Positions 6,725 through 35,461 of a DNA stretch of 64,000 nt are shown in pieces. This stretch comes from Moorena sp. SIOASIH (lineage in GTDB: Bacteria; Cyanobacteriota; Cyanobacteriia; Cyanobacteriales; Coleofasciculaceae): contig NZ_JAAHIH010000001.1 of the NCBI RefSeq assembly GCF_010671925.1, positions 869,053 through 933,052 of the forward strand, given 5' to 3'. Within the stretch, counting starts at the first letter, position 1; each line of letters starts with the position of its first letter. Both the position numbers and the translations under genes were made by a program. The notes under the pieces were generated by a model. That model made no database searches and was not told the DNA's origin. It saw only the letters and a program-made list of their open reading frames with translations.

Positions 6725-7204
6725 TCAGACCAAGGCACAGGGAATGGGGAAGCTTTAACAGCAAGGGTTTGAGCGACTACAAGGGCTGGCAACTGTTAAG
6801 GATTTTCTCCAAGAATGTTGCACTATCTCCAAAGATGTGTTAGACTTTAAACATAGATTCAGTTTCATTAGAGATACTTTGCGACTTACATTAAAGCCGA
6901 AAACCAAGGGTTTAAGGGTTGCGTTTTTTGTCAATAGTGGAATCAAATTTATGCGCTAAGCCGGGCATAGTCCGGGTAATGCCTTGGGAGATACCCCCTG
7001 GCTGGCAAAATCCAGCTTGCATTAGTGAGCCTTAATCTGATTTGTAGATTTTGGTAGCTAAAAAGTATCGGAACTTAACACAGTTCATTGAATTTATCTG
7101 CACTTACTCTTGCCAAATTTCTGCCATCGTCAGCACAAAACCAGGTAAAACCGATTCACCACTAACCCTGGTAGGATTGTCTAGCTGCTCAACTAATGCA
7201 CCAG

Positions 7205-7830
7205 GGCGTTGACACTCCCCGGTCTAAAGACACGGGGATTCTTTGTTCGCAGACTCGACTTGCTCAACCAGGCCGGAACCAGGAAAAGTAGAGGTCAAAT
7301 CTCCCAAAGCGTTTGGATTTAAGATCCAGGTTCCGACGTGCCCCGCCGTACCCAAGGCTTGTTTAAGGATGTTGTTCGCGTAGCGTCGGCTTCGCCGAAT
7401 CGCGGCGTTATGATCTCTATCCAATTGACATCCACACTTACAGGCGTGAGTTCTAGTTGATAGGGATTTTTTAACAACTTCGCCACAATTAGAGCAATTT
7501 TGGCTTGTATAGGCAGGATTAACTGCAATAGTTATCTTGCCAAACTTGGTGCCAAAGTGCTCCATCCATTTCCTAAATTGATACCAACCTGCATCGTTAA
7601 TAGACTTAGCAAGACAATGGTTCTTTGCCAGATTCTTGACTCTCAAATCTTGCCTTACGGCACGCTTCGCGAACGTAAGCGATCAAGTCGTTAGACCGAA
7701 CTACGCAACGCGCCAGTCTCTTGGCGTGTTCTATGCGCTTCGCGCAGGCTACGCCAACACGTTGCCTACTTATTTTGAGATGTTGTCTCCCTAATCTATT
7801 AACCGCTTTCTTGCGAATTGATGTTTTTTG
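7205..7830 (-). pseudogene. tnpB: 5'-truncated tnpB (IS200/IS605-family) remnant; intact ORF portion 7224..7646
   Basis: The 140-aa ORF is ~80% identical to the C-terminal RuvC-III/Zn-finger part of the full-length TnpB at 58403..59599. Nucleotide similarity continues out of frame to ~7830. A right-end-type hairpin sits at 7215-7243. Confidence 0.7.
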
Positions 7831-8089
7831 CCTTTTGCCTTGAACTCCAAAATGATCATCAGTTTCGACCTCAACTGCTCTCTATTTTATTCTACAACAC
7901 TCAAACTAAAATTCCTGATTTCCCTAAAATATTTTTCTCACGGCGGCTTTAGCCGCTGTGAGCCTTCATCCTCGGTCTAAAGACACGATGTTTTCGGCTT
8001 TTTGGATTTTTATAATGTTTTTTATAATGTTATTTCTATTTTAAAGGTATTCCAGAGAAGTTAGTATATTGACCATCTCTCTCTGTTAA

Positions 8090-8725
8090 TTATCTATTTA
8101 AGAAAATAAATTCCCGGAGCAATTCTAAAAGCTCTAATGAAATCTCATGACCCATATCTAATTCTCTGTACTGCACTGCTGCTCCCAAGTTGAGCAAATA
8201 ATCTCGTAAGCGGTGAGCAGCACTTAAAGGAACAACCGTATCTTGTCTACCATGCACAATTAAAATGGACGGCAACGATGAATCAACCTTTTGAGGGGTT
8301 CGATGCATATAGCCACTCAAGGAGGCTAAACCTGCCAGGGGTAAGGTTAACCCTACATCCAGAGCCATTGCCCCACCTTGAGAAAAGCCACACAAAATCG
8401 TCGAAGATAGGGGAATACCTGTAAAACCTTGGAGAGAATTGAGCCAGTAGGTCAAGCGCTCTTCGCTTTCTTCTAATCCCCGATAGTCGTCTCTTGCCAA
8501 GTCGTACCACATTCTGCCACCATTTACCTGAGGGTGACTAAAAGGAGCATCGGGAATCAAAAATTGGGTATTGGGCAAGTTTAACGATGGCACTAGAGAT
8601 GCCACAGCTTGAGCATTAGCACCCCAACCGTGTAACGCTACGACCAATCGTGCTGGTCGTTGACCGTTTGCTGGTGGAATTGAAATCGCTTCGAGAGACA
8701 GGCCTCTTACTCCTGAAGAACACAA
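8090..8725 (-). CDS. alpha/beta hydrolase, phospholipase/carboxylesterase family
   Basis: Nucleophile elbow GFSQGG, plus HGWG and HGxxD motifs typical of Abhydrolase_2 esterases. Confidence 0.75.
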   Translation of the reverse strand: MCSSGVRGLSLEAISIPPANGQRPARLVVALHGWGANAQAVASLVPSLNLPNTQFLIPDAPFSHPQVNGGRMWYDLARDDYRGLEESEERLTYWLNSLQGFTGIPLSSTILCGFSQGGAMALDVGLTLPLAGLASLSGYMHRTPQKVDSSLPSILIVHGRQDTVVPLSAAHRLRDYLLNLGAAVQYRELDMGHEISLELLELLREFIFLNR

Positions 8726-9039: not shown

Positions 9040-9292
9040 GAGTTTTCAGATTGGTCAAGCTCACCTCTGTTGGTGCGCTTTCACGCTTGTCGGGAAACCC
9101 GACCGGGGTCGCACCGCAAATGGTAAACGCTATCAAGGTCACGATACCCTGGGGTGCTCGCCAGCTCCAGGCTCTATCGCTTCTGATTAAACAGGTGATG
9201 AGTTAATTTAGTGAAGCCAGTGTCAGAAGCCTAACAAGCTTTGATAGCCGAGCGAGGCACACTTTACCCTCAACGGGAGTAAACACAAAACC
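9040..9292 (+). ncRNA. putative IscB omega-RNA scaffold (guide expected at the 5' side)
   Basis: In IscB elements the omega-RNA is encoded directly 5' of iscB. This region has nested stems (9072-9115 GGTGCGCTTTC...TCGGGaaaCCCGA...GGGTCGCACC). The 81-aa ORF 8945..9190 is probably non-coding. Confidence 0.4.
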
Positions 9293-10582
9293 ATGTGTAA
9301 TTACGTCTTTGTTTTAGATGCAAGCCATAAACCCCTCAACCCCTGCCGTCCCGTTACCGCCAGGAAGCTGTTGACGGCTGGGAAGGCGGCTGTATATCGC
9401 CGTTACCCTTTCACAATCATCTTGAAAAAGCAGGTAGACGGCTCAGCTAAACCGATGTCCCTCAAGATCGATCCTGGCTCCAAGATTACTGGTCTAGCTG
9501 TTGTGTACAGTAATCAGGTGGTGTGGTCTGCTGAAATCGAACATCGTGGCTCCAAAATCAAATCAGCTCTCGACTATCGTCGAGGGGTTCGCCGTTCCCG
9601 TAGAAAGAGGAAATGCCGTTACCGAAAGCCACGTTTCAACAACCGGAAACGCCCAGAAGGTTGGTTGGCTCCGAGCCTACAACACAGAGTGGCAACCACT
9701 ATGACCTGGGTGCTGAGATTGATGAAACTCACCGCCATTGGTTCGATATCCCAGGAGCTAGTCCGCTTTGATACCCAAAAGCTCCAAAATCCGGAAATAT
9801 CTGGCATAGAGTATCAACAGGGGGAGCTGATGGGCTATGAAGTGCGGGAGTACTTGTATCAGAAATGGGGTCGCCAATGTGTCTACTGTGGGGCGAAGTC
9901 TGTCAAGCTAGAGGTGGAACACATAATCCCAAAATCCAAGGGGGGAACGAATCGTGTCAATAACCTCACCCTAGCCTGCCATCGGTGTAATCAGGCCAAA
10001 GGAAATCTTGATGCTCGGGATTTTTTATCGGGGAAACCCCATGTCCTAAAGCGGATTTTAGGTAGAGCAAAGCAACCACTATTAGATGCGGCGGCGGTCA
10101 ACTCCACCCGTTGGCAACTTTACCTTTGCTTGAAAGAAACTGGATTGTCCGTAGCAGTAGGAACTGGTGCCAGAACCAAGTACAACCGTATCAAGCTGGG
10201 ATTACCCAAGGGTCATTGGGTGGATGCCGCCTGTGTCGGGGAAGTGGCCACATTGAAGATTGTAACCAGACAGCCTCTTTTAATCAAAGCGATGGGTCAC
10301 GGTTGTCGTCAGGTAATACAGATGGACAAATACGGCTTTCCTCGCAAAGGGTACAAACCCAAGCATCCTGTGAAGGGATGGAAAACCGGGGATATCGTTA
10401 ATGTGGTAGCTGGGAAGAATGCTGGATTAAAAGGGGTTCGCATCAAGACCGTCAGAGCCAAAGGAAATTTTGATCTAATCGGGGCTGATCACGGTGTCTC
10501 CAAGAAGGTCAACAGCGCATCTCGCAACTACATTCAATGTGTCCATCGTCAGGATGGGTATTATTATAGTTTTGCTAAATGA
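9293..10582 (+). CDS. iscB: IscB, OMEGA RNA-guided nuclease (Cas9 ancestor; RuvC split by HNH)
   Basis: PLMP-like N-terminus (KPLNPC), RuvC-I IDPGSKITGLAV, Arg-rich bridge helix RRGVRRSRRKRKCRYRKPR, HNH CVYCG...EVEHIIPKSKGG...NLTLACHRCNQAKGN, RuvC-III GHWVDAACVG, and a C-terminal TI-like domain. 429 aa. Confidence 0.85.
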   Translation: MCNYVFVLDASHKPLNPCRPVTARKLLTAGKAAVYRRYPFTIILKKQVDGSAKPMSLKIDPGSKITGLAVVYSNQVVWSAEIEHRGSKIKSALDYRRGVRRSRRKRKCRYRKPRFNNRKRPEGWLAPSLQHRVATTMTWVLRLMKLTAIGSISQELVRFDTQKLQNPEISGIEYQQGELMGYEVREYLYQKWGRQCVYCGAKSVKLEVEHIIPKSKGGTNRVNNLTLACHRCNQAKGNLDARDFLSGKPHVLKRILGRAKQPLLDAAAVNSTRWQLYLCLKETGLSVAVGTGARTKYNRIKLGLPKGHWVDAACVGEVATLKIVTRQPLLIKAMGHGCRQVIQMDKYGFPRKGYKPKHPVKGWKTGDIVNVVAGKNAGLKGVRIKTVRAKGNFDLIGADHGVSKKVNSASRNYIQCVHRQDGYYYSFAK

Positions 10583-24702: not shown

Positions 24703-24890
24703 GTAAGCATTCAGCGGTCAGCCGTCAGCCGTCAGCTTTCTGTGGTCAGCCGTCAGCTTATTTTATTCAAAAACTGTTCCCCTAGCGTGGCCAAGAGCTT
24801 ACCGTGGCCATAGGCCAAGGCCAAGCGTGTGCGTAGCGCATAACCTGAGAGCTAAGAGCTGATAGCTGAATGCTGATAGCTGAATGCTTA
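24703..24890. mobile_element. MITE-like element with terminal inverted repeats GTAAGCATTCAGC...GCTGAATGCTTAC
   Basis: TIRs read directly. Internal GTCAGCC heptamers and a conserved TTATTTTATTCAAAAACTGTTCCCCTAGCGTGGCC block. Confidence 0.7.
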
Positions 24891-25019
24891 CAAGATACTA
24901 TTGAAAAAAGCGAAAGGCTTATATAATAATAATTCTGCTCAGAGCTGATAGTTAAGGGCTGATCGCCCGTCCGCTGAGGGCTGACAGTAGAATCTATTGC
25001 GAAAATCCTTGACTACTAC

Positions 25020-25943
25020 GTGGTTATAAGCAATAGAGTTAGGTTAATCTTAAACAAAAGTGAGGTAACGACAATCAACATGGAAGCTATTGAACTCGAA
25101 GTCAGCCAACTAAAATTTTTACTGAAGCTACTGAGCAAACCGGATTATCGGGCATTGATTACGGAAGCGAAACCCAATTCTAAAACCTCAGCGGGGGAAC
25201 GAGATCGAATTTGTCGGGAGTTATGCGATCGCAATTTGATTGACTCTAATCAAGAAATCACAAAAATTCAGATCACTGATGCAGGCAAGGAACTTCTAAA
25301 CCAAGATCAGGCTGAAGTACCAATGAGCACGAAAGAACGCAAAATTATCAAAGCCTGTGAAACAGAACCGACTACTCCCGCCAAGACAAACGTTAAGCCT
25401 GCTAAGACCCGAAAGGAAATCATGGAAGGTTTGATAGAACGGGGTTATATCACAGTAGCAGAAACTAAATTCAAAGATGTCTGGATTACTGAAACCGGTA
25501 TTGAGTACCTATTAAATAATTATAAACCCGTTGGTCGTGGCAATATCAATCTGTCTAAAACCATGCTAGCGGATTATATTGATTTCCTGCGGAAACAGCT
25601 GCCAAACTCAACAACTACAAACTCAGAAACAATCTCAGAATCAGATGGCAATTCAGCTCCGACTCTAGTCAATGCCCCTAATAATGAAGAAATATTACAA
25701 ATTATCAAGGATTTAGACCAAGAACTGGGTACGGAAAACTATTTGCCACTGTTTCATTTGCGCCAAAAGTTACAACCGCCTTTGTCTAGGGAAGAATTAG
25801 ATAAAGCACTGTATAGCTTGCAAGCAGAGGATAAAATTGATCTGAGTGCTTTGGAAGAAGCTAACATGTATACAGAGGAACAAATTGAAGCTGGTATTCC
25901 TCAAAATACCGGGGGGAGGCTATTTTTCATTATGGTGCAGTAA
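25020..25943 (+). CDS. hypothetical protein with two tandem winged-helix-like modules (probable start at M21, MEAIELEV)
   Basis: Internal repeat R..I...L..R.LI.......I.ITD/E.G.E.L appears twice. No catalytic motifs. First gene of a co-oriented three-gene cluster. Confidence 0.5.
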   Translation: MVISNRVRLILNKSEVTTINMEAIELEVSQLKFLLKLLSKPDYRALITEAKPNSKTSAGERDRICRELCDRNLIDSNQEITKIQITDAGKELLNQDQAEVPMSTKERKIIKACETEPTTPAKTNVKPAKTRKEIMEGLIERGYITVAETKFKDVWITETGIEYLLNNYKPVGRGNINLSKTMLADYIDFLRKQLPNSTTTNSETISESDGNSAPTLVNAPNNEEILQIIKDLDQELGTENYLPLFHLRQKLQPPLSREELDKALYSLQAEDKIDLSALEEANMYTEEQIEAGIPQNTGGRLFFIMVQ

Positions 25944-26032: not shown

Positions 26033-28045
26033 ATGGCAACGATCCAGGAAATAATTCAACAAGCTCCAAACCCGTTTGACACCGTGACCTTTACTACGGG
26101 TAATTTTTGGGAAGATCCAGACAATGGAGCTGTTAATGTCAAATCGATTCATCAAGATGAAATTAATCAGATAACCACCACCCTCAGTGCGGTGACTCAA
26201 GACCATCGACCCCGCACTATCTTACTGGCTGGTGATCCTGGTGCGGGGAAAAGTTATCTGTTAAAACGGCTCAAACAGCAGCTCAATCAAGACGCCTTTT
26301 TTGCTTATATCGGTCCTTGGGCAAATAGCGATCGCATCTGGCGCTATATCCTCAGGGAAACCGTTGAAAGTCTGCTCAAAATCCCAGAAGGAGAACAAGA
26401 GTCTCAGTTACTGCTGTGGCTCAAGAGTCTCCCGGTCTTTAAAAAAACCGGCTGGCTCCGGAATGAGCGACAACAGTTTATTGGTGACCTCAGAGCTACC
26501 TATCCAACCGGAATTCATAGAAATAAGGAATTTTTTGGAGTCCTCTATGAACTAACTAATCCAGAACGATATCACTTGGCTTATCAATGGTTAAGGGGAG
26601 AAGATTTAGATGAAGATGATTTGGAAACCCTTCGGGTCAGAGGCTCTATAGATAACGAAGACGATGCTCAGAACATCTTAATCAACTTCGGGAGAATTTC
26701 TTCATACACCAAGCCAATTGTGCTGTGTTTTGACCAATTGGATAATATTCCTCGTTTGCCTGATGGTTATCTGGATCTAGAAGCTCTGTTTAATGTCAAC
26801 TCTACCCTCCATACTCGCTATCCCAATAACATGCTGATTATAATCAGCATGATTAGCAATACCTTGAGACGGAATCAAAAACAAATTAAACCCGCTAATA
26901 TTGCTAGACTTAATCATAAAATTCTGCTCAAAAGGATTACCCTAGAGCAAGCAGAATCCCTTTGGGCAAACCGACTATATTCGTTACATCAGCAAGCTGA
27001 TCAAAAACCAATTTTACCGATTTATCCTTTAACTCGGCAAGACCTCGAAAAAGCATTTCCTGGTGGCAAAACTACTCCTCGGGAGACATTGACCCTGGGA
27101 AATCAGCTAATTGAAAGATATAAAACTCAGATAGTTAATAGTTCAGATCCATCAACCAAGACTAAATCAACTAGTCAAGATGATACCGCTGGTAAATCAA
27201 TACCGAGAGCAGAAAAAGCCTTAGCTTCATTTAAATGGAAGTGGCAAAAAGAATTTCAAAAAACTGAGCAGAAAATTACCCGAATCGGAACAAATTATGA
27301 ACCTGAATTGATTAAGATGTTACGAGAGGCATTAGAAGCTCTGGAGGTCAAGGATGTTAAATCAAACTTTTTGTCAGGTAGTTTTGCCAGTTATTCCCTA
27401 AGTTACCAGCTGCCATCATCCCAGGAACGGATCGGATTAGTCTGGGGAGAAACTACTAATGGTAACAGCTTTTATCATCTGATGAATGCCTGTGATAAAG
27501 CTATTCAAGGCAATCGCTGTCAAACCTTATACCTAATTCGCTATACAGAAGTTAAAAAACGTGGTCTTAAGGGGGACAAACTCTACAGCAAACTATTCAA
27601 TGGTTCTGGCCATATTCACCTCAAATTAGAAGACCTCTCCTCTGTCTATTACTTAGCTACTTATCATAGCTTAGTTAATCAAGCTTTTTCCCAAGAGTTA
27701 GTGCTTGCTGATACAATACTAACACTGCCAGAGTTACAAGATATAATCCGAAAATCGTTAATTTTGCAGGATTGTCCCTTACTACAAGAGTTGAATATTT
27801 TTCCTAGTAAGGTTAACGATACTCAACTTGTTACCAAGCCGGTTAAGGAATTTGTGATAAATCTGCTCAAACAGAATCAAATTATTGGTCATAATGTTTT
27901 AATTAAAACTACTCAGAATAAATTGACTTCCATCAAGGAAATAGCAATTCACCAAGGAATTAAGGAACTGTCTCAGGAAAATAAAATTAAACTTCTCCCT
28001 GTGGATGGTTCCCTAGATAAACAATTAGTATGTTTGGTACCGTAA
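26033..28045 (+). CDS. P-loop NTPase, NACHT-like STAND family
   Basis: Walker A GDPGAGKS. Walker B hhhhFDQLD resembles NACHT hhhhDGhDE. Long alpha-helical C-terminal region. Confidence 0.6.
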   Translation: MATIQEIIQQAPNPFDTVTFTTGNFWEDPDNGAVNVKSIHQDEINQITTTLSAVTQDHRPRTILLAGDPGAGKSYLLKRLKQQLNQDAFFAYIGPWANSDRIWRYILRETVESLLKIPEGEQESQLLLWLKSLPVFKKTGWLRNERQQFIGDLRATYPTGIHRNKEFFGVLYELTNPERYHLAYQWLRGEDLDEDDLETLRVRGSIDNEDDAQNILINFGRISSYTKPIVLCFDQLDNIPRLPDGYLDLEALFNVNSTLHTRYPNNMLIIISMISNTLRRNQKQIKPANIARLNHKILLKRITLEQAESLWANRLYSLHQQADQKPILPIYPLTRQDLEKAFPGGKTTPRETLTLGNQLIERYKTQIVNSSDPSTKTKSTSQDDTAGKSIPRAEKALASFKWKWQKEFQKTEQKITRIGTNYEPELIKMLREALEALEVKDVKSNFLSGSFASYSLSYQLPSSQERIGLVWGETTNGNSFYHLMNACDKAIQGNRCQTLYLIRYTEVKKRGLKGDKLYSKLFNGSGHIHLKLEDLSSVYYLATYHSLVNQAFSQELVLADTILTLPELQDIIRKSLILQDCPLLQELNIFPSKVNDTQLVTKPVKEFVINLLKQNQIIGHNVLIKTTQNKLTSIKEIAIHQGIKELSQENKIKLLPVDGSLDKQLVCLVP

Positions 28046-28320
28046 GCTATCAGCAATCAGCAATCAGCAATCAGCTATCAGCAATCAGCTATCAGCAATC
28101 AGCTATCAGTTATCAGTTATCAGCTATCAGCTATCAGCTATCAGCTATCAGCTATCAGCTATCAGCAATCAGCTATCAGCTATCAGCTATCACAGGCTAG
28201 AAGCCTGTGCCACACTACTTGAGGTGCCATTGGCCAAAGACTGACGGCTGACCGCTGACGGCTGACCGCTGACGGCTAAAGATTATTCTACCATAGCTAA
28301 AATTCGGATAACAAGCGCCA

Positions 28321-31062
28321 ATGTACCTGACTCAACCAGCCCAGATCCGAAAGTTAATCCTGAATTTATCAGCAGCAAAAATTCTCTGGTTAGATACAGA
28401 AATTGCTGATTGGGATACCCCTAATCCGAGATTATCTCTGATTCAGGTATTGGCTGATCCGACAGATACAAATGGTGAAAAAGCTTACATTTTAGATGTA
28501 TTAGACAAACCGGAAGTAGTGATAGACTTTGTTAACTATATTATGGTCAATCCTAACATTGAAAAAGTCTTTCACAACGCTAGTTTTGATTTACGGTATC
28601 TAGGGGGTAAAGAGCAAGCTAATAATGTTACCTGTACCTATAAAATAGCGAGAAAGCTGACCAATAAGAAACTGTCTAATCCATTAGAGGTATCCAATAG
28701 TAAATTAAAAACACTAGCGCTAGAACTATGCCATTTCGCCAATGTCGATACAGACGAACAAAGCAGTGATTGGGGCAAACGTCCGCTAACCGAAAAACAG
28801 CTAAAGTATGCAAAACTGGATACAGTGTATCTAGCCCATGTCCATCGCCGCTTACTAGAAATTGCCAAAAATAGCTCGAATCCAGAGCAGATGGTCACCA
28901 GAAAATCACGGACGCAACAATCAGAATCCCCTGGCTTCAGTGTTACCCAAGTTAGGGTAGCCCTTGAATGTCCTCGCTTATTTTATTTGAGTCATCACTT
29001 TGGTGGAAAAACCCTATTTATACCACCATCCAACTCACCAGGTATTGGGACAGTATTCCATCAGCTATGTCAACAGTCTACTGACACACTCCAGCAAGAT
29101 TCCCGATTTCAAGCTTTATTTTCTCCCACAGCAAGTCAGCTAGACCTAGGCCAGATTAGCTCTAAGATCCAAGCGCTACTGTATGAGCTAGTGGTTTTCC
29201 CTCAAATCGATGACTTAGAGATAGCCTCCCTACTTCCACTGTGGCAAGGATTAAAATCACTATTTCCCCATTGGACTCAACTGCTAGTTACTAATCGAGG
29301 CTATTGTCAGCCAGAGGAAGTAATTAGTAAAACCTTCGTTGCTCAAGAAATGAACCTCAGTTATAACTTCACTCTTCCTGATGGCACCGAGCAACACGTT
29401 AATGGAAAATTTGATAGCTTAATTTTCGACTGTGAACGCGATCGCTATTGTGTCGTAGACTATAAAACCTATCAACCGGTAGATCCATCCGCTAACCTAG
29501 CTCAAGTAGCTCTCTATAGTTACATGCTCCACCAAAAAAAAGGAGTAGCAATAGATGCAGCGGTTTATTGTGTTTTACCGGAATTCCAAAAACACTACTA
29601 TTCCCGGGAAGAGCTAGAGGATACAGTGCATCAGCTCATTCCCCATAAATTACAACAGATGCGGGAATGGCTGACTTGGAAACCTGCCCAGGTCGAAGAG
29701 GAGGGAGATGGAGAAAGTAGAAAAAACCATTGCACTCCAGCAATCGATAAGGGCAACCTGGAGCCACCACCACCGACACCACAGCTTCAGCTATGCAACA
29801 TTTGTCCCCAACAGCAGACCTGTCAAACCTTTTTTGAGGAGGTGAAAACTGAGCAAAAGCCAGTCAAGGCACCATCCCGCAAAATTCCTGAGACTGAGCA
29901 AAAGTCGGTTAAGCCACGTACCGCTAAAACTCGTAATCCTGAGCAAAAGCCAGTCAAGGCACCATCCCAAGCAACTCCTGAGACTGATCAGATCGGGCAA
30001 AAATTGGTGAGTACTCTAGAAGGCTTTAACATTAGTGTCGATTATGTCAACGCAACAGTTGCTCCAGCATTTGTCCGGATCAAGCTAAAACCCAATCGTG
30101 GGGTAAAAGTCATATCTATACAGAATCGCTCCAAGGATTTAAAAGTACACTTAGGTCTGGATAATCCTCCGCTGATTACTCCGAAAGCTGGGTATGTCAG
30201 TGTGGATTTACCACGGAAGGATGAGGATAGAGAAGTAGCTAGATTTGATGACTATATCCAGCTTACAGCAAATTCCGCCCCCCTAACCCCCCAATCTTGG
30301 GGGGAAATTGAGTTAAAGTCTCCCAGGATTGCGGTTGGAGTAAATTTAGATGGGAAATTGGTAGAGGCGGATTTATCGGATCCTAATACCTGTCACTTTT
30401 TGGTAGGGGGCACAACCGGAAGTGGCAAGAGTGAATTTTTGCGATCGCTTCTGCTATCCCTACTTTATAACCATTCTGCTGAACAGCTCAAAATTGCTCT
30501 AGTTGATCCCAAGCGCGTCACTTTCCCAGAATTTGAGCAAATGCCATGGTTGCTGTCACCAATCGTTAAAGATAGCGATCGCGCTATCGAACTGATGGAG
30601 CAATTAGTTGATGAAATGGAGCAGCGTTACCGGAAATTTGAACAAGCCAAGTGTCCTCACCTGGATGCTTATAATCAGCAATTGAGTAATAAACAAAACC
30701 TAGCTTTACCTCGGATAGTTTGTATTTTTGACGAATATGCTGACTTCATGGCAGAAAAAGAAATCCGCAAAGAGTTAGAATTAAGCATTAAGCGTTTAGG
30801 AGCCAAAGCTAGAGCAGCTGGGATTCATTTGATTGTTGCTACTCAACGGCCAGATGCTAACGTTGTTACTCCGATTATTCGCTCTAATTTACCAGGGCGA
30901 ATTGCTTTACGCACAGCGTCTGAAGCCGACTCAAAGATTATTTTTGGTGGCAGCAACACTGAAGCAGCTTATTTGTTGGGTAAGGGAGATTTATTATATC
31001 AAAAGGGTGGTAAGTTAGAGCGATTGCAGAGTTTGTTTGCTGAGACAATTAAATTGCCTTGA
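28321..31062 (+). CDS. three-domain fusion: DEDDy 3'-5' exonuclease + Cas4/RecB-like 4-Cys PD-(D/E)xK nuclease + FtsK/SpoIIIE-type DNA translocase ATPase (no gamma domain)
   Basis: ExoI LWLDTE, ExoII FHNASFDL, ExoIII YAKLDTVY. Cys...C-x2-C-x5-C (ECPRLF; CNICPQQQTC) with GKFDSL, VVDYK and QVALYSY nuclease motifs. FtsK beta-domain, Walker A GGTTGSGKSEFL, Walker B IVCIFDEYADF, and ATQRPDANVVTPIIRSNLPGRIALRTASEADSKIIFG. Confidence 0.75.
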   Translation: MYLTQPAQIRKLILNLSAAKILWLDTEIADWDTPNPRLSLIQVLADPTDTNGEKAYILDVLDKPEVVIDFVNYIMVNPNIEKVFHNASFDLRYLGGKEQANNVTCTYKIARKLTNKKLSNPLEVSNSKLKTLALELCHFANVDTDEQSSDWGKRPLTEKQLKYAKLDTVYLAHVHRRLLEIAKNSSNPEQMVTRKSRTQQSESPGFSVTQVRVALECPRLFYLSHHFGGKTLFIPPSNSPGIGTVFHQLCQQSTDTLQQDSRFQALFSPTASQLDLGQISSKIQALLYELVVFPQIDDLEIASLLPLWQGLKSLFPHWTQLLVTNRGYCQPEEVISKTFVAQEMNLSYNFTLPDGTEQHVNGKFDSLIFDCERDRYCVVDYKTYQPVDPSANLAQVALYSYMLHQKKGVAIDAAVYCVLPEFQKHYYSREELEDTVHQLIPHKLQQMREWLTWKPAQVEEEGDGESRKNHCTPAIDKGNLEPPPPTPQLQLCNICPQQQTCQTFFEEVKTEQKPVKAPSRKIPETEQKSVKPRTAKTRNPEQKPVKAPSQATPETDQIGQKLVSTLEGFNISVDYVNATVAPAFVRIKLKPNRGVKVISIQNRSKDLKVHLGLDNPPLITPKAGYVSVDLPRKDEDREVARFDDYIQLTANSAPLTPQSWGEIELKSPRIAVGVNLDGKLVEADLSDPNTCHFLVGGTTGSGKSEFLRSLLLSLLYNHSAEQLKIALVDPKRVTFPEFEQMPWLLSPIVKDSDRAIELMEQLVDEMEQRYRKFEQAKCPHLDAYNQQLSNKQNLALPRIVCIFDEYADFMAEKEIRKELELSIKRLGAKARAAGIHLIVATQRPDANVVTPIIRSNLPGRIALRTASEADSKIIFGGSNTEAAYLLGKGDLLYQKGGKLERLQSLFAETIKLP

Positions 31063-31141: not shown

Positions 31142-31870
31142 CTACTCAACACCCCGAGCCACACGAAAACCGACATTGGTTTTGATGGCATCGCGCGTGA
31201 AATTGTAGTCGCGTTGGGCAGAACGGCAATGAATAGGAGAGCTGGTCCAGGACCCGCCCCGCAGAATATATTTAGTATGATTACTAGTAGGTTTAGTCCA
31301 GACACTCCCATCTGTAGGAGGATCTCCTTTGTAATTATCATGCCTTGGATCCGCACACCACTCCCAAAGATTGCCGTGCATATCGTATAAGCCAAAGCCG
31401 TTGGGGGGAAAAATTCCTACGTCGGTGGTTTCTTCTCGATATTTCCATTCTTCTTCCTCTGCATAAGTAAAGTCACCGTTATAGTTAGCTAATTTACTGG
31501 TTATGGTCTCTCCATAATGGAATGGTGTGGTAGTTCCTGCTCTACAAGCGTATTCCCATTCCGCTTCACTGGGTAATCTGTATTCCGTTCCTGTATGTTT
31601 AGAGAGGCGATCGCAAAATTCCACCGCATCGTACCAGCTTACTTGCTCTACTGGTCGCTTCTCTCCTTTAAATATCGAAGGGTCTGGCTTTAAGTCCCGG
31701 TTAACTTTTGGGAGTTTGGCCACAGCTCGCCATTGCGCTTGGGTTACCAGATATTTGCCCAGGAAGAAGGGTTGGATGGTTACTTGGTGTTGAGGTCTTT
31801 CAGTTTCATCACTCCCCCTCTCAGTTTCCGGGGAACCCATTAAGAAGGTTCCGGCTGGGATATACACCAT
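31142..31870 (-). CDS. stand-alone formylglycine-generating-enzyme/sulfatase-modifying (FGE-sulfatase, FGS) domain protein; truncated tandem duplicate of the 3' half of 32680..34878
   Basis: ~70% aa identity to the C-terminal domain of the CHAT-FGS protein (MVYIPAG...RLPSEAEWEYACRAGTTTPFHYGETITS...YDMHGNLWEWC). Nucleotide similarity extends upstream to ~32010. Confidence 0.7.
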   Translation of the reverse strand: MVYIPAGTFLMGSPETERGSDETERPQHQVTIQPFFLGKYLVTQAQWRAVAKLPKVNRDLKPDPSIFKGEKRPVEQVSWYDAVEFCDRLSKHTGTEYRLPSEAEWEYACRAGTTTPFHYGETITSKLANYNGDFTYAEEEEWKYREETTDVGIFPPNGFGLYDMHGNLWEWCADPRHDNYKGDPPTDGSVWTKPTSNHTKYILRGGSWTSSPIHCRSAQRDYNFTRDAIKTNVGFRVARGVE

Positions 31871-32176
31871 GTCTAGGTCTACTCCATTCCCCAGATCTTG
31901 AGTGAAATAATCCGCTTGCTGGGATTTTCGGTTGATTATTGCTCCTCTACGGTTAACTGTTACTACTTGAAAGGAAAACTGCTTTAAACCTTTTGGCTCT
32001 GCCGTTTGTTTGTAAACTAATAAATTAGAAATGTCATTGGCATTTTTTTATAACCATTGCTTTAGTTGCTCAGCCTCTGACTTAGGAATATTTCCATTTA
32101 CTAATAAACGATCGACAAATTTTACAATAAATTTTTCATCATCATTTCGTTGATGTATATGTATATGATCCAAATT

Positions 32177-32581
32177 TTATAGAATTTCATAAAAAGTGTT
32201 AGGATTTTTATTTTGACAATCGGGACAACAATCTCTGTAAGACTTTTGCATTTGTTTTATCAAGTTTTTTTCTAAAGGAATCAATATATTGATTAAACTA
32301 GTGGTAATTTTGAAATTTTCCTCAATCGCTTTTAATTTAGCATTATTTTGATTTTGTTTAAGTGCTCTATCAATTAATTCTTCTAACTGATTGTAAGCCT
32401 GACAATACATTATTAATTTGTGAACTATTGCCTTTAAATTTCCACCGCTAGCAACCTCGTTCAGATTTATATTTAATTCAAAAAGCACCATCATTTCTAA
32501 GTCAGTTTTATCAGGAAAAGCACTACACAGTGCTTCGTTTATCTTTTTGAGTAGATAACCAAGGGTATGTCCAGTATTCAT
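32177..32581 (-). CDS. small alpha-helical protein of unknown function (AT-rich, ~30% GC)
   Basis: 134-aa ORF, C-terminal CCPDCQN. Lies in an AT-rich insert between the two FGS copies. Confidence 0.45.
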   Translation of the reverse strand: MNTGHTLGYLLKKINEALCSAFPDKTDLEMMVLFELNINLNEVASGGNLKAIVHKLIMYCQAYNQLEELIDRALKQNQNNAKLKAIEENFKITTSLINILIPLEKNLIKQMQKSYRDCCPDCQNKNPNTFYEIL

Positions 32582-32679
32582 TGATGGTTAGTTCAAGACC
32601 TTATTTTCCGGCGGGCAGGATGCCCGCTCTACTGCTATTAATTCAAAGACTGACGCAACGCCATAAAAAGGGCAAAGGG

Positions 32680-34878
32680 CTAAATCTTCCCAACACTCTG
32701 AGCCACACGAAATCCGACCTTGACGAAGATGAAAACGCTCAGTTTAAAGAGGTTAAAGTGGTCGGAGTAGTCGGAGCGGAAGGCAGAACGGCAATCCCCA
32801 GCCTCGGTGTTCCACGAGCCGCCCCGCATAATATAATAATTAAAAGGATTATGTTTTTTACTCCAGACACTCGCATCTGTAGGGGCTCCTTTGTAATTAT
32901 CATGGAAAGGATCCGCACACCATTCCCAAACATTTCCGTGCATATCGTATAAGCCAAAGCTGTTGGGAGGAAAACTTCTTACTGGGGTGGTTTTTCTTCG
33001 ATACTCCCCTTTTTTTTCCTTTGCATAAGTATCGGAAGCCTTATAATTAGCTAATTCACTGGTTATAGTCTCTCCATAATGGAATGGTGTGGTAGTTCCG
33101 GCTCTACAGGCATATTCCCATTCTGCTTCACTGGGTAATCTGTATTGCTTTCCTGTATATTTAGAAAGGCGATCGCAAAATTCCACTGCATCGAACCAGG
33201 TTACTCGCTCTACTGGTCGATTCTCTCCTTTAAATTCAGAGGGGTCTGGATCTAAGTCATGTTTAACTTTTGGGAGGTTTTGAACCACAGCTTTCCATTG
33301 CGCCTGGGTTACCTGATATTTCCCCAGGAAAAAGGGTGGGATGGTTACTTGGTGTTGAGGTCTTTCCCTGTCATCAATCCACCTCTCTCTTATCGAGGAA
33401 CCCATTGAGAAGCGTCCTGCTGGGATATACACCATATCTAGGGGGTCTACTCCATTGCCCAGATCTTGAGTAAAATAACTTGCTTGTTTATTTTCTCGCT
33501 CGCTTATTAATCCTTTACCGTTAACTGTTACTACTTCAAAGGAAAACTGCTTTAGACCTTCTGGATGTTGCCCATTACCAAATAACTTCCCCCCCTTTTT
33601 ATCAGACCAACGTAGGTAAAGCACTGGGCGATACCATTGGTTTCCCTCTCTACCCATTTGAGCCTGTCCCATACTAACAGCAGTAGTTAGGACTTTTTTG
33701 TTCCCTAATGCTCGATAAAACCGCTCTGCAAAAGCAGTTGCCCCTTTTACGGTAACATTGTATTGCATAGCTACCACTGCTGGAATCTGTTGCTCTATCA
33801 ATTTTTGAGCCACACCGTTGAACACAGAATCGCTTCCCAGTGCCTTCCCCGTTTGACAAGCACTCATAACCACCAAACGAATGCCTTGGTCTGGTTTTTG
33901 TTCTAAATCAAGATTACTTTTTTGAATCAGCTCACTAATTTCTGTAGCACTAATATAATCGGCCTCTTTAGTACTATCTTTTTGGTTAGGTTTAAACAGT
34001 AAGTAACCTTGGGGAGATGGATCTAAAGGATAGCCACATTTTCGGCATTCCTTCGCTGTGAGATCGTCATGGATAGTACGGCATTGCTCTTGATTGCAAC
34101 GTTTACCGAAAAAGCCATGACCATCGAAGTGAATGAGATGAGGCGTTTTGTCTTCAGAGATTTGGGTGAGGTAATCTCCAAATTCTTTGAAAGTCGGAGA
34201 TTTTAGGGTTTCTACCTCAATTGTGCCTTCTGCTTCAGCTTGTTTGAGTCCTCTTAGTATAGCTGTTTGCTCTTGATAGTCAAGGGAAACTAAACCCATA
34301 TCTGTATCGCCAACAGGGGATGAGACCAGGAAAACCTTGATTTTGTTTACTGGTGGAAGTTCAGGTATTTTTTGGACAAAGCCAATTAACCGTGAAAAAG
34401 TCACTTGTCGTCCAGCCAGAAATCCGCGATCGTCGCAAGCTAATTCCCAAGGATAATCCGGTAAACGTCCTCTCTGGTCAATTTTTTCATTAAATTGAAT
34501 TTGAATATGTAGTTGTTCCCCTTTATCAAGGCTCCCTAACATTATAGTTAATAAATCCCTGCCATCTCCTGGGGGAAAAAGAGTGTTATAGATATCTTTT
34601 CCAATCTTCTTTAATAGTTGGGTATCGAAATGATTACCCTCTGAAGTAAGCCACCCTTGCTTTTTCATCCATTCTACTTCTTCCTCATAAAAGTTATTGG
34701 ATTTAAAAGCTACAGCACCAAGGGCGTCAATCATAGTAGTTCGCCATTGCTTTCTATTTTCAAAAAAGGGTAAACGGGAATGATAATCTGCATGACCAGC
34801 TTCTCCATAGGCATAAATTTGGATTTCTCCTGGCTCTGCACTTCTGGGTACGGTTAAAAATAATGTCAGTAGTTTCAT
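32680..34878 (-). CDS. CHAT (caspase-like) peptidase fused to C-terminal FGE-sulfatase (FGS) domain
   Basis: Caspase-fold His/Cys dyad (HLIHFDGHGFF; LVVMSACQTG). C-terminal SUMF1/FGE motifs as above. Confidence 0.85.
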   Translation of the reverse strand: MKLLTLFLTVPRSAEPGEIQIYAYGEAGHADYHSRLPFFENRKQWRTTMIDALGAVAFKSNNFYEEEVEWMKKQGWLTSEGNHFDTQLLKKIGKDIYNTLFPPGDGRDLLTIMLGSLDKGEQLHIQIQFNEKIDQRGRLPDYPWELACDDRGFLAGRQVTFSRLIGFVQKIPELPPVNKIKVFLVSSPVGDTDMGLVSLDYQEQTAILRGLKQAEAEGTIEVETLKSPTFKEFGDYLTQISEDKTPHLIHFDGHGFFGKRCNQEQCRTIHDDLTAKECRKCGYPLDPSPQGYLLFKPNQKDSTKEADYISATEISELIQKSNLDLEQKPDQGIRLVVMSACQTGKALGSDSVFNGVAQKLIEQQIPAVVAMQYNVTVKGATAFAERFYRALGNKKVLTTAVSMGQAQMGREGNQWYRPVLYLRWSDKKGGKLFGNGQHPEGLKQFSFEVVTVNGKGLISERENKQASYFTQDLGNGVDPLDMVYIPAGRFSMGSSIRERWIDDRERPQHQVTIPPFFLGKYQVTQAQWKAVVQNLPKVKHDLDPDPSEFKGENRPVERVTWFDAVEFCDRLSKYTGKQYRLPSEAEWEYACRAGTTTPFHYGETITSELANYKASDTYAKEKKGEYRRKTTPVRSFPPNSFGLYDMHGNVWEWCADPFHDNYKGAPTDASVWSKKHNPFNYYIMRGGSWNTEAGDCRSAFRSDYSDHFNLFKLSVFIFVKVGFRVAQSVGKI

Positions 34879-35086
34879 TATCTAAGGTGTTTTGCCTGGG
34901 AACTAGATATGAATGAAATCAACTAAAAACTATAGATATCTATCAAATTTTGCCTTTTGCCTCTCGCTGAATCTCACTTCTGCTGTTTGACCCGAGCAAC
35001 TTTTTGACAAATGAATATAAGATGCACCCTTTGCTTTTTGCCTTTGGCCTTGCTAAAACGGATTTTAAATTTTCAGCTTAGCTTTT

Positions 35087-35461
35087 CTATATCGATTTTC
35101 CACTTTTACCTTTGATCGTTCCCTCTATACTGTTGTTGATTGAGGGAAGAACAGTTCCTGGATATAAATCTTGACAGTATCGCTTCATTTCCTCTTTACT
35201 ATACAACGGCGATAGTTTAACCTTCACTTTTTGAAGTGAATCCTGACCAACTCCACCACTAGCTTCTGCTCCACCAACGGATAAAACATTCATTTTAATG
35301 CCAGCTTTTCCTTCTCTTTTCAGGGTTACTTGAAGCTCTAGTTCAACTGATTCCACAAAAAGAAAAGGAGCTGTTTTATTTTTTGCAGGTGTTAGTAATT
35401 CCCCTTTGACTTGCTCAACCAATTCCGCAAGTCCAATCGAACTATTTCCGTTATCAGTCAT
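35087..35461 (-). CDS. trypco2-family small protein (trypsin/CHAT co-occurring domain)
   Basis: Pattern IGLAELVEQVKGEL...FLFVESVELELQVTLKREGKAGIKMNVL...KVKVKLSP matches the small proteins that accompany CHAT/trypsin effectors. Same strand and adjacent to the CHAT gene. Confidence 0.6.
   Translation of the reverse strand: MTDNGNSSIGLAELVEQVKGELLTPAKNKTAPFLFVESVELELQVTLKREGKAGIKMNVLSVGGAEASGGVGQDSLQKVKVKLSPLYSKEEMKRYCQDLYPGTVLPSINNSIEGTIKGKSGKSI

Follow-up and report, generated by a model that had tools for sequence, protein, structure and literature searches.

The stretch of DNA analysed here (the window) comprises 64,000 nucleotides of the cyanobacterium Moorena sp. SIOASIH (NCBI RefSeq assembly GCF_010671925.1, contig NZ_JAAHIH010000001.1, positions 869,053 to 933,052 of the forward strand; positions given below are counted within the window). 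Its gene C (28321..31062, plus strand, ATG start) encodes a 913-aa fusion of a DEDDy 3'-5' exonuclease, a four-Cys PD-(D/E)XK nuclease and an FtsK-type DNA translocase. A preliminary description of this gene, made from the letters alone, had presented the protein as a single-chain DNA-destruction or DNA-processing machine. The protein is not self-contained, however, and its architecture is not rare. C stands third in a conserved operon, in which it is preceded on the same strand by gene A, for a protein with three winged helix-turn-helix (wHTH) modules, and gene B, for an ORC/Cdc6-like AAA+ ATPase; furthermore, its architecture is the usual one across hundreds of cyanobacterial species, with an exonuclease-less core occurring in other phyla. 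Judged by sequence comparison, A is the orthologue of RcaD and B lies at the position of RcaG. We give about even chances to the reading that the three proteins form an ATP-driven DNA-targeting system with a counter-invader role, in which C is the effector.

Part of this was already known: the genes are widespread, they are found in databases under misleading FtsK names, and an in-silico description of the class dates from 2024. Within the literature that could be searched, it is new that RcaD and RcaG would be the recognition and loader half of a nuclease-translocase system, that the cyanobacterial version appears stably inherited, and that natural fusions between B and the motor support a physical coupling of B and C. 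If true, a DNA-destroying or DNA-resecting engine would be built on an FtsK pump and not on a helicase, and an ORC-like loader together with a separate DNA reader would stand in for the steering gamma domain. The operon would then be a compact, tractable case for the study of ring-translocase targeting and nuclease coupling. The operon also connects two bodies of literature that have so far stood apart, namely the one on RcaD and RcaG, which deals with chromatic acclimation and with promoters of natural-product clusters, and the one on 'HerA/FtsK capture' defence systems.

The fusion protein C and its active sites

All four domain matches in C exceed their curated Pfam cut-offs. The N-terminus, in place of a membrane anchor, is formed by the exonuclease domain (aa 3-180, 28327..28860; PF01612 DNA_pol_A_exo1, E = 4e-29). 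This is followed by the four-Cys Cas4/AddB-like nuclease (aa 206-502, 28936..29826; PF12705 PDDEXK_1, E = 2.7e-15), by the FtsK alpha domain (aa 548-631, 29962..30213; PF17854 FtsK_alpha, E = 5e-9) and by the RecA-like FtsK beta motor (aa 669-905, 30325..31035; PF01580 FtsK_SpoIIIE, aa 669-844, E = 1.3e-39), all of them on the plus strand. The single-chain combination of two nucleases and a motor that had been proposed for this gene is therefore correct, and the profile search likewise bears out the nuclease nature of the middle domain.

The preliminary description had considered all catalytic motifs intact, and every string that it quoted was indeed found in the translation: LWLDTE, FHNASFDL, YAKLDTVY, ECPRLFY...CNICPQQQTC, GKFDSL, VVDYK and QVALYSY, and for the motor GGTTGSGKSEF, CIFDEYADF, ATQRPDANVV and RIALRTASEADSKIIFG. 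The DEDDy motifs Exo I (DxE), Exo II (Nx3D) and Exo III (Yx3D) are all present, and the beta motor carries the Walker A sequence GGTTGSGKS and the Walker B sequence FDEYAD. To describe conservation, an alignment of 84 cyanobacterial orthologues was used. The PD-(D/E)XK residues D365, D/E380 and K382 are kept in all 84 of them. At least 83 of the 84 keep the exonuclease residues D25, E27, N86, D90, Y163 and D167, the nuclease residues Q395 and Y399, the cysteines C217, C492, C495 and C501 (spacing C...C-x2-C-x5-C) and the Walker residues K703, S704, D804 and E805. Between genera the motor is the best-conserved part of the protein, with an identity of 77%, followed by the exonuclease (64%), the alpha domain (57%), the nuclease (55%) and the linker (17%). 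Together, the E-values and this conservation place the domain observation far beyond chance, and the domains and active sites are, by all signs in the alignment, intact and under purifying selection.

Regarding the missing parts of a true FtsK, neither FtsK_gamma (PF09397) nor FtsK_4TM (PF13491), the four-transmembrane (4TM) anchor, matched C in Pfam at E <= 0.1. The FtsK of Pseudomonas aeruginosa (PDB 2iuu) matches C at E = 8e-49 in an alignment that spans the alpha and beta domains, the alpha domain of C corresponding to residues 85-182 of that protein. This alignment stops at the beta domain; C ends about 15 residues beyond the last aligned beta-domain block, and in all 84 cyanobacterial orthologues the chain likewise ends just past the beta domain. 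The absence of the gamma domain, which had been noted by eye, is thus confirmed.

The type of the two nucleases could be narrowed down to some extent. In the case of the middle domain, the Cas4 model TIGR00372 of NCBIfam matches at E = 9e-5, which is under its curated cut-off, and a PADLOC Cas4 match is weak; PADLOC Cas4 models also match short-form relatives, with E-values down to 9e-8. The profile of this domain gave no significant match among PDB sequences. Among solved sequences, the exonuclease domain comes closest to diDNase, NrnC and RNase D.

The linker between nuclease and motor is a low-complexity tether that is hypervariable across genera. In Moorena it contains a 45-bp in-frame tandem repeat with 3.1 copies of the 15-aa unit TEQKPVKAPSRKIPE (29848..29987, plus strand; Tandem Repeats Finder). 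The in-frame repeat that had been read in the linker is real, and it has three 15-aa units where two had been counted. As a separate observation, Moorena C has two insertions relative to the orthologues of other genera: an extra 22-26-aa acidic stretch at aa 456-481 (~29686..29763), before PPPPT...CxxCx5C, and 13 extra residues between alpha and beta at aa 647-659 (~30259..30297).

Genes A and B

Gene A (25080..25943, plus strand) encodes a triple winged-helix DNA-binding protein of 287 aa when it is read from the conserved Met; the mechanical open reading frame begins at a GTG at 25020 and gives 307 aa. Gene B (26033..28045, plus strand) encodes the ORC/Cdc6-like AAA+ ATPase, with the Walker A sequence GDPGAGKS and the Walker B sequence VLCFDQLD. 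Structures were predicted for both proteins. In B, the AAA+ core is followed by a middle alpha/beta domain (~aa 420-600) and, at the C-terminus, by a winged helix (aa 602-668), the latter assigned solely by its predicted topology (H-E-H-H-E-E, at a pLDDT, the predicted local distance difference test, of ~85). The nearest structural relatives of B are ORC/Cdc6, TnsC, MuB, DnaC and BrxC. The secondary-structure order of the middle domain is compatible with a restriction endonuclease (REase) fold; a profile search of the PDB with this domain gave no match, and hhalign assigned a probability of 0.9% to its alignment with the nuclease domain of C. No paralogue of A, B or C was found within the window.

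The connection to experimental work came from a database label. The window's A is 44% identical to gene A of Tolypothrix tenuis PCC 7101, which both NCBI and UniRef name RcaD and which is directly followed by B and C. In that strain B is called 'Orc1-like AAA ATPase', and C is called 'cell division FtsK/SpoIIIE' or 'PD-(D/E)XK nuclease family protein'. The label 'transcription factor RcaD' on an A orthologue leads to Jones et al. (2009, PMC2799420). According to the passages of that paper which concern these proteins, the jamaicamide promoter pulled down protein 7968 of Lyngbya majuscula (now Moorena), and this protein gave a shift in an electrophoretic mobility-shift assay (EMSA). It has 43% identity to the RcaD of Calothrix (Tolypothrix, Fremyella) PCC 7601, and 7969, its neighbour downstream, has 49% identity to RcaG. 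In the same passages RcaD is cited as a protein that was purified by its binding to promoters and whose loss alters red-light operon expression in chromatic acclimation, and RcaG is summarised as 'a putative ATPase' proposed to aid the DNA binding of RcaD. Both RcaD and 7968 thus bind DNA experimentally, by this account. Orthology was judged via T. tenuis PCC 7101 and the published identities of 7968 and 7969: because of these identities and of the gene order in T. tenuis, we take A to be the RcaD orthologue and B to lie at the RcaG position.

The examined passages of the RcaD/RcaG literature make no mention of a nuclease-FtsK gene directly downstream. There the two proteins appear as a transcription co-regulator and its helper ATPase, whereas here both precede such a gene. 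Moorena also has a second, more distant RcaD-like/RcaG-like pair, 5335/5336, of the All4300 family, which has homologues in Nostoc PCC 7120 (all4300), as far as the RcaD-related part of PMC2799420 describes it; this pair lies outside the 64-kb window.

The operon in cyanobacteria

To survey the operon, tblastn was applied to those cyanobacterial loci that have enough upstream sequence, which gave 77 testable loci. Seventy-three of these have A, B and C in colinear order. The gap between B and C has a median of 47 bp across the cyanobacterial loci and measures 275 bp in Moorena, where the spacer is filled with heptamer tandem repeats that were read from the sequence (28048..28276; AGCTATC/AGCAATC about 20 times, then GACGGCT/GACCGCT). 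Similar heptamers (CAGCCGT, GCTGATA) are found upstream of A, at ~24715..24965. The heptamers upstream of A and in the B-C spacer are cyanobacterial repeats of the short tandemly repeated repetitive (STRR) type. A scan for promoters and terminators returned counts no different from those in shuffled sequences, and Rfam had no match within or near the operon.

The four-domain architecture is found throughout cyanobacteria, in proteins with 55-62% identity to C. A scan of one genome per species gave 326 species with a relative of C. The best 80 of these 326 are all cyanobacteria, from the Nostocales, Coleofasciculales, Oscillatoriales, Pleurocapsales and Leptolyngbya-like groups; none is picocyanobacterial, and most are filamentous. 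Proteins of this type carry the annotation 'DNA translocase FtsK' in hundreds of cyanobacterial species, and a GenBank entry identical to C, from Moorea (Moorena) sp. SIOASIH, is annotated 'cell division protein FtsK'. Such 'FtsK / cell division' annotations are misleading.

A further gene, for an ATPase of the ParA/MinD type (CbiA/AAA_31), often accompanies the operon. In 29 of the 77 loci it comes after C, on the same strand and no more than 500 bp away, and in 23 more it occurs elsewhere in the locus (examples are L051 8720..9604 and L001 10783..11667). Between genera it is 47-99% identical, and 61-99% where it is directly adjacent. It is absent beside the Moorena operon. This gene may be a syntenic neighbour of ancient date, or else a fourth partner in function.

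Relatives in other phyla, on plasmids and in phages

The wider family was described with HMMER, run exhaustively against 1.8 billion cluster representatives. Its members have ~650-690 aa and consist of a PD-(D/E)XK nuclease, an FtsK alpha domain and an FtsK motor, without the exonuclease; among them are proteins from a Myxococcota metagenome-assembled genome (MAG) and from Candidatus Magnetomorum. Homologous A-B-C operons, confirmed by BLAST and profile HMMs, are present in the Myxococcota MAG (L086), on the unassigned contig L088 from a metagenome, on L090, a conjugative plasmid of Pseudanabaena PCC 7367, and in a variant with a kinase (L092); in several of these operons beyond the chromosomal cyanobacterial set, stop and start codons overlap. 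B and C alone are found in Candidatus Magnetomorum (L085) and on contig L087. The Pseudanabaena operon, which has no exonuclease, was the only near-full match in the plasmid collection.

Several of these loci have defence-type neighbours. L086 has Cas6, Cas2 and a reverse transcriptase, L088 has a PIN/Phd toxin-antitoxin pair together with a second AAA_16 gene, and L087 has MazG. A canonical FtsK, complete with its 4TM, alpha, beta and gamma domains, is also encoded on L087, within 5 kb of the C gene, which means that C is not the FtsK of that organism.

The motor clade is modular, with other heads attached to it: a C-terminal HNH domain (P0136), a Ser/Thr kinase after the exonuclease (P0126) and a YbjN-like domain (P0131). 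In two proteins, P0176 and P0192, a whole B-like ATPase is fused N-terminally to the FtsK alpha/beta motor; both align with B residues 64-604 and then run into FtsK alpha/beta. By Rosetta-stone reasoning, these natural fusions suggest a joint action of B with the motor of C, and they predict that B would dock close to the alpha domain. In the kinase variant (L092, 1418..9366), a stand-alone PDDEXK_1 gene, A, B and a DUF29 gene precede a 1121-aa C, whose Ser/Thr kinase insert sits between the exonuclease and the remaining domains.

The HNH form could be followed on a phage-like contig (L091). There, a 737-aa protein of FtsK alpha/beta and a C-terminal HNH domain (6001..8214) shares 60% identity with C over the motor. 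Its neighbours are genes for an ERF recombinase, KilA-N and MazG and a giant tape-measure gene, and no homologue of A or B was found on this contig. The phage collection gave motor-only matches, and none of its phages had the fusion.

One candidate orthologue had to be discarded. The 'FtsK' all7666 of Nostoc PCC 7120 (plasmid beta, L089), which is the Anabaena 'FtsK' of the literature, lies on a conjugative plasmid among transfer-type genes. Because its identity to C is 38% and limited to the motor, we regard it as a different, conjugation-type FtsK-like paralogue.

Proposed mechanism

We propose the following sequence of events. Protein A, of the RcaD type, would bind duplex DNA with its three winged helices. 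Protein B would be an ORC/Cdc6-like AAA+ switch that, together with A, recruits, loads or licenses C on DNA. ORC/Cdc6, DnaC, TnsC and MuB load or recruit partner enzymes in a similar general way. C is expected to assemble via its FtsK alpha and beta domains into a ring, presumably a hexamer, that pumps double-stranded DNA, while the flexible linker would tether both nuclease heads to this ring. The pumped DNA would then be degraded by the Cas4/AddB-like Fe-S nuclease, acting on the 5' strand or endonucleolytically, and by the DEDDy 3'-5' exonuclease. A and B may thereby supply in trans the steering that a true FtsK receives from its gamma domain and from KOPS, the FtsK-orienting polar sequences.

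The likeliest role would be the restriction-like elimination of invading or linear DNA, as in the class of the 'Orc/CDC6 - HerA/FtsK capture' systems, and the cyanobacterial version would be a stable chromosomal operon that gained an extra exonuclease head. The processive DNA-destruction or DNA-processing machine of the preliminary description is still the most plausible mechanism, and it agrees with the independent in-silico prediction described below (PMC10853773).

Comparison with known systems

The 'Orc/CDC6 - HerA/FtsK capture' neighbourhoods were predicted in silico as counter-invader systems in a comparative-genomics paper on Dnd systems (NAR 2024;52:1005, PMC10853773), which devotes one paragraph and a figure to them and contains no experiments. 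The class combines an Orc/CDC6 AAA+ protein, in which an inactive REase precedes a C-terminal wHTH, with an active REase and a HerA/FtsK ATPase. One subset has an FtsK-alpha domain ahead of the ATPase, 'captured from the cellular versions'. A protein with 2-4 wHTH is optional, and a 3'-5' exonuclease may be fused to the component that contains FtsK-alpha. The pump is predicted to bring DNA to the restriction domain, and the systems are called 'mobile gene neighborhoods'. RcaD, RcaG and cyanobacteria are mentioned neither in the main text of this paper nor in its examined supplement.

Of this inventory, the operon has the C-terminal wHTH of B, an active REase-fold nuclease as predicted from its residues, FtsK-alpha with the ATPase, the three-wHTH protein A and the exonuclease on C. 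At the place of the inactive REase, B has the alpha/beta domain described above, whose secondary-structure order would allow such a fold and which hhalign aligned with the nuclease of C at a probability of 0.9%. As regards mobility, the capture systems are described as mobile, whereas the cyanobacterial operon is syntenic and seems vertically inherited; the Pseudanabaena copy is plasmid-borne.

SspFGH and DndFGH are similar in their layout, as in both cases three genes encode a P-loop protein, a small DNA-binding protein and a large effector with nuclease and FtsK-like parts. DndG is a triple wHTH protein, and SspH and DndH have a C-terminal FtsK/HerA-like ATPase. The PADLOC model for SspH (PDLC02806) matches C at aa 429-894, via the motor, with 234 bits and E = 8e-70; the FtsK model of NCBIfam reaches 157 bits on the motor, the two libraries being different. 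SspFGH is known to damage DNA and to block phage replication (PMC8092258). However, C is half the size of SspH and DndH, and its nuclease is Cas4-like, not a type II REase with an inactive methylase. A and B matched none of the PADLOC models for SspF, SspG, DndF and DndG (E <= 0.01-0.1), and no phosphorothioate modification genes (sspBCD/dndABCDE) lie within ~10 kb of the operon.

With FtsK/SpoIIIE, such as the FtsK of E. coli and P. aeruginosa, C shares homologous alpha and beta domains and both Walker motifs, A and B. It differs from them in having two N-terminal nucleases and the obligate partners A and B, and in having neither the 4TM anchor nor the gamma domain. With HerA-NurA, AddAB, RecBCD and AdnAB it shares the coupling of a motor to nucleases, HerA being a member of the FtsK-HerA superfamily, and with AddB in particular the four-Cys type of PD-(D/E)XK nuclease. 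As a whole, however, C is not homologous to any of these; its motor belongs to the FtsK clade and is neither HerA nor a superfamily 1 helicase, and its parts are joined in one chain and accompanied by an ORC-like partner, unlike in the end-resection machines. The middle domain, a putative 4Fe-4S nuclease, resembles Cas4 and keeps all catalytic residues, but it is fused to a translocase and has no cas1/cas2 context. The N-terminal domain resembles the DEDDy enzymes RNase D, NrnC, diDNase and the WRN type, again with all catalytic residues kept. A nuclease-fused FtsK of cyanobacteria may already appear in the 2004 paper of Iyer et al. on the FtsK-HerA superfamily.

Weighing the interpretations

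For the proposed system speak the intact active sites, the conserved operon within and beyond cyanobacteria, the natural B-motor fusions, the structural kinship of B, the published DNA binding of A and the independent listing of the same domain inventory in PMC10853773. For its role in conflicts speak the swapping of heads on a single motor clade (PD-(D/E)XK, DEDDy, HNH and the kinase insert), the defence-type neighbours outside cyanobacteria, the plasmid copy, the match of the SspH model and the apparently patchy distribution.

A number of observations weigh against such a role. The identity ranking of the relatives of C tracks taxonomy, the flanking GT2 gene (upstream) and ParA-like gene (downstream) are syntenic across orders, and the motor is 77% identical across orders. 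Judged by these patterns, the cyanobacterial operon behaves as a vertically inherited gene and not as a mobile defence island. In the examined loci, neither a modification gene nor another gene that would mark self from non-self is linked to the operon, and the A and B proteins of cyanobacteria and Myxococcota matched no PADLOC defence model (E <= 0.01-0.1). The sole published phenotypes of A and B, as cited in the RcaD-related passages of PMC2799420, concern the expression of phycobiliprotein genes. Nucleases of the Cas4/AddB and DEDDy types work on ends or on single strands, and a ring that pumps duplex DNA would have to offer these to them in a way that the model does not explain. The preliminary description had also allowed that the architecture could be the known form of a characterised family. 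This proved half right: the family is known and its function predicted, and experimental work on it was not found in the searchable literature.

The vertical inheritance leads to a different view, which we hold possible but doubtful: the cyanobacterial RcaD-RcaG-C set would be a domesticated machine that acts on the cell's own DNA. It may be the missing RecBCD/AddAB-type end processor of large-genome polyploid cyanobacteria, or else an RcaD-guided, site-directed DNA processor. If so, the two-decade-old 'transcription factor' RcaD and the 'helper ATPase' RcaG would be targeting and loading subunits of an FtsK-driven nuclease, and the results on chromatic acclimation and promoter pull-down would need to be reinterpreted. 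A housekeeping processor of double-strand breaks, replacing RecBCD/AddAB in large-genome cyanobacteria as a fused analogue of the archaeal HerA-NurA, seems to us rather unlikely. In such a processor the FtsK ring would feed ends to the 5'-3' Cas4/AddB-type nuclease and to the 3'-5' exonuclease, leaving recombinogenic ends, and foreign linear DNA may be destroyed incidentally, as it is by RecBCD. This would agree with two nucleases of opposite polarity joined to a motor as in AddAB/RecBCD, one of them of the four-Cys AddB/Cas4 type, with the syntenic, vertical inheritance and with the strongly conserved motor. It would also agree with a review according to which recBCD is present in marine Prochlorococcus and Synechococcus and often absent from larger cyanobacterial genomes (PMC5101192), given that the best 80 of the 326 carriers are all non-picocyanobacterial and mostly filamentous. 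The FtsK-HNH relative on the phage-like contig L091, moreover, adjoins the ERF single-strand-annealing recombinase, the usual position of a recombination exonuclease. Yet RecBCD-like enzymes need neither an ORC-like loader nor a sequence-reading wHTH partner, and the exonuclease-less relatives are found in defence-type or plasmid contexts. The distribution also looks patchy: the BLAST table of Jones et al., in the part that covers RcaD-type proteins, has no match for the strains Nostoc PCC 7120, A. variabilis and N. punctiforme (PMC2799420).

The experimental record on RcaD could alternatively be taken at face value, as a transcription or chromatin device in which RcaD binds phycobiliprotein and other promoters, RcaG assists, and C remodels or clears promoter DNA with nucleases that are minor or regulatory. 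The co-operonic arrangement of A, B and C fits this, as do the promoter binding of RcaD, the effect of its loss on red-light operon expression, the proposed help of RcaG and the pull-down and EMSA shift of the Moorena orthologue on the jamaicamide promoter, in the account that PMC2799420 gives of them. We consider it improbable. The strict conservation of both nuclease active sites is hard to square with a purely regulatory role, and the A-B-C module also occurs in non-photosynthetic Myxococcota and on unassigned metagenome contigs. Both RcaD-type identifications used linear DNA probes, which any abundant DNA- or end-binding protein would bind. In the same passages of PMC2799420, the rcaD phenotype is cited as kinetic and mild, and chromatic adaptation was not observed in Lyngbya majuscula (= Moorena), although this species carries the operon. 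Very improbable, in our estimate, is a module of mobile elements, in which an integrated element or plasmid would use the ORC-like initiator, the wHTH protein and the FtsK pump for its replication or transfer, much as TraB-type FtsK pumps are used in conjugation. The copy on the conjugative plasmid of Pseudanabaena PCC 7367, the related FtsK-HNH protein on a phage-like contig, the general frequency of FtsK-like pumps on plasmids and phages and the wording 'mobile gene neighborhoods' in PMC10853773 point in that direction. Against this, no integrase, relaxase or other transfer gene lies beside the operon in the window or in the inspected cyanobacterial loci, the operon keeps a stable chromosomal place with synteny from order to order, and two nucleases on the pump, active by prediction, would be incompatible with delivering intact DNA. 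Finally, C could be what the annotations of NCBI, UniRef and JGI say, an ordinary FtsK/SpoIIIE for chromosome segregation and dimer resolution at the septum. The alpha and beta match to P. aeruginosa FtsK is in its favour, as is a diel-expression study of Nostoc punctiforme in which Npun_R4092 ('ftsK'), a possible orthologue of C or else another FtsK-like gene, co-varies with cell-division and peptidoglycan genes. Like the preliminary description, which had argued against a segregation FtsK, we rejected this reading and find it hardly credible: the 4TM anchor and the gamma (KOPS/XerD) domain are missing, two predicted active nucleases are attached to the motor, C is always partnered with A and B, and the contig of a distant relative (L087) has its separate canonical FtsK.

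Other features of the window

Within ~10 kb of the operon, the window contains a two-component system, a pentapeptide-repeat protein and FGE-sulfatase/CHAT, EAD1 and Trypco2 proteins. The genes upstream of the operon are ordinary regulators. Beyond C, on the minus strand, lies a cluster of the conflict-system type (31142..35461) that encodes FGE-sulfatase, EAD1 effector-associated-domain, CHAT plus FGE-sulfatase and Trypco2 proteins; these domain types have been described for the conflict systems of multicellular prokaryotes (PMC7159879). At a greater distance, a HEARO RNA (9089..9267; Rfam RF02033, 88 bits) lies just 5' of a 429-aa open reading frame with RRXRR and HNH domains (9293..10582), and together they make up an IscB/OMEGA-type element.

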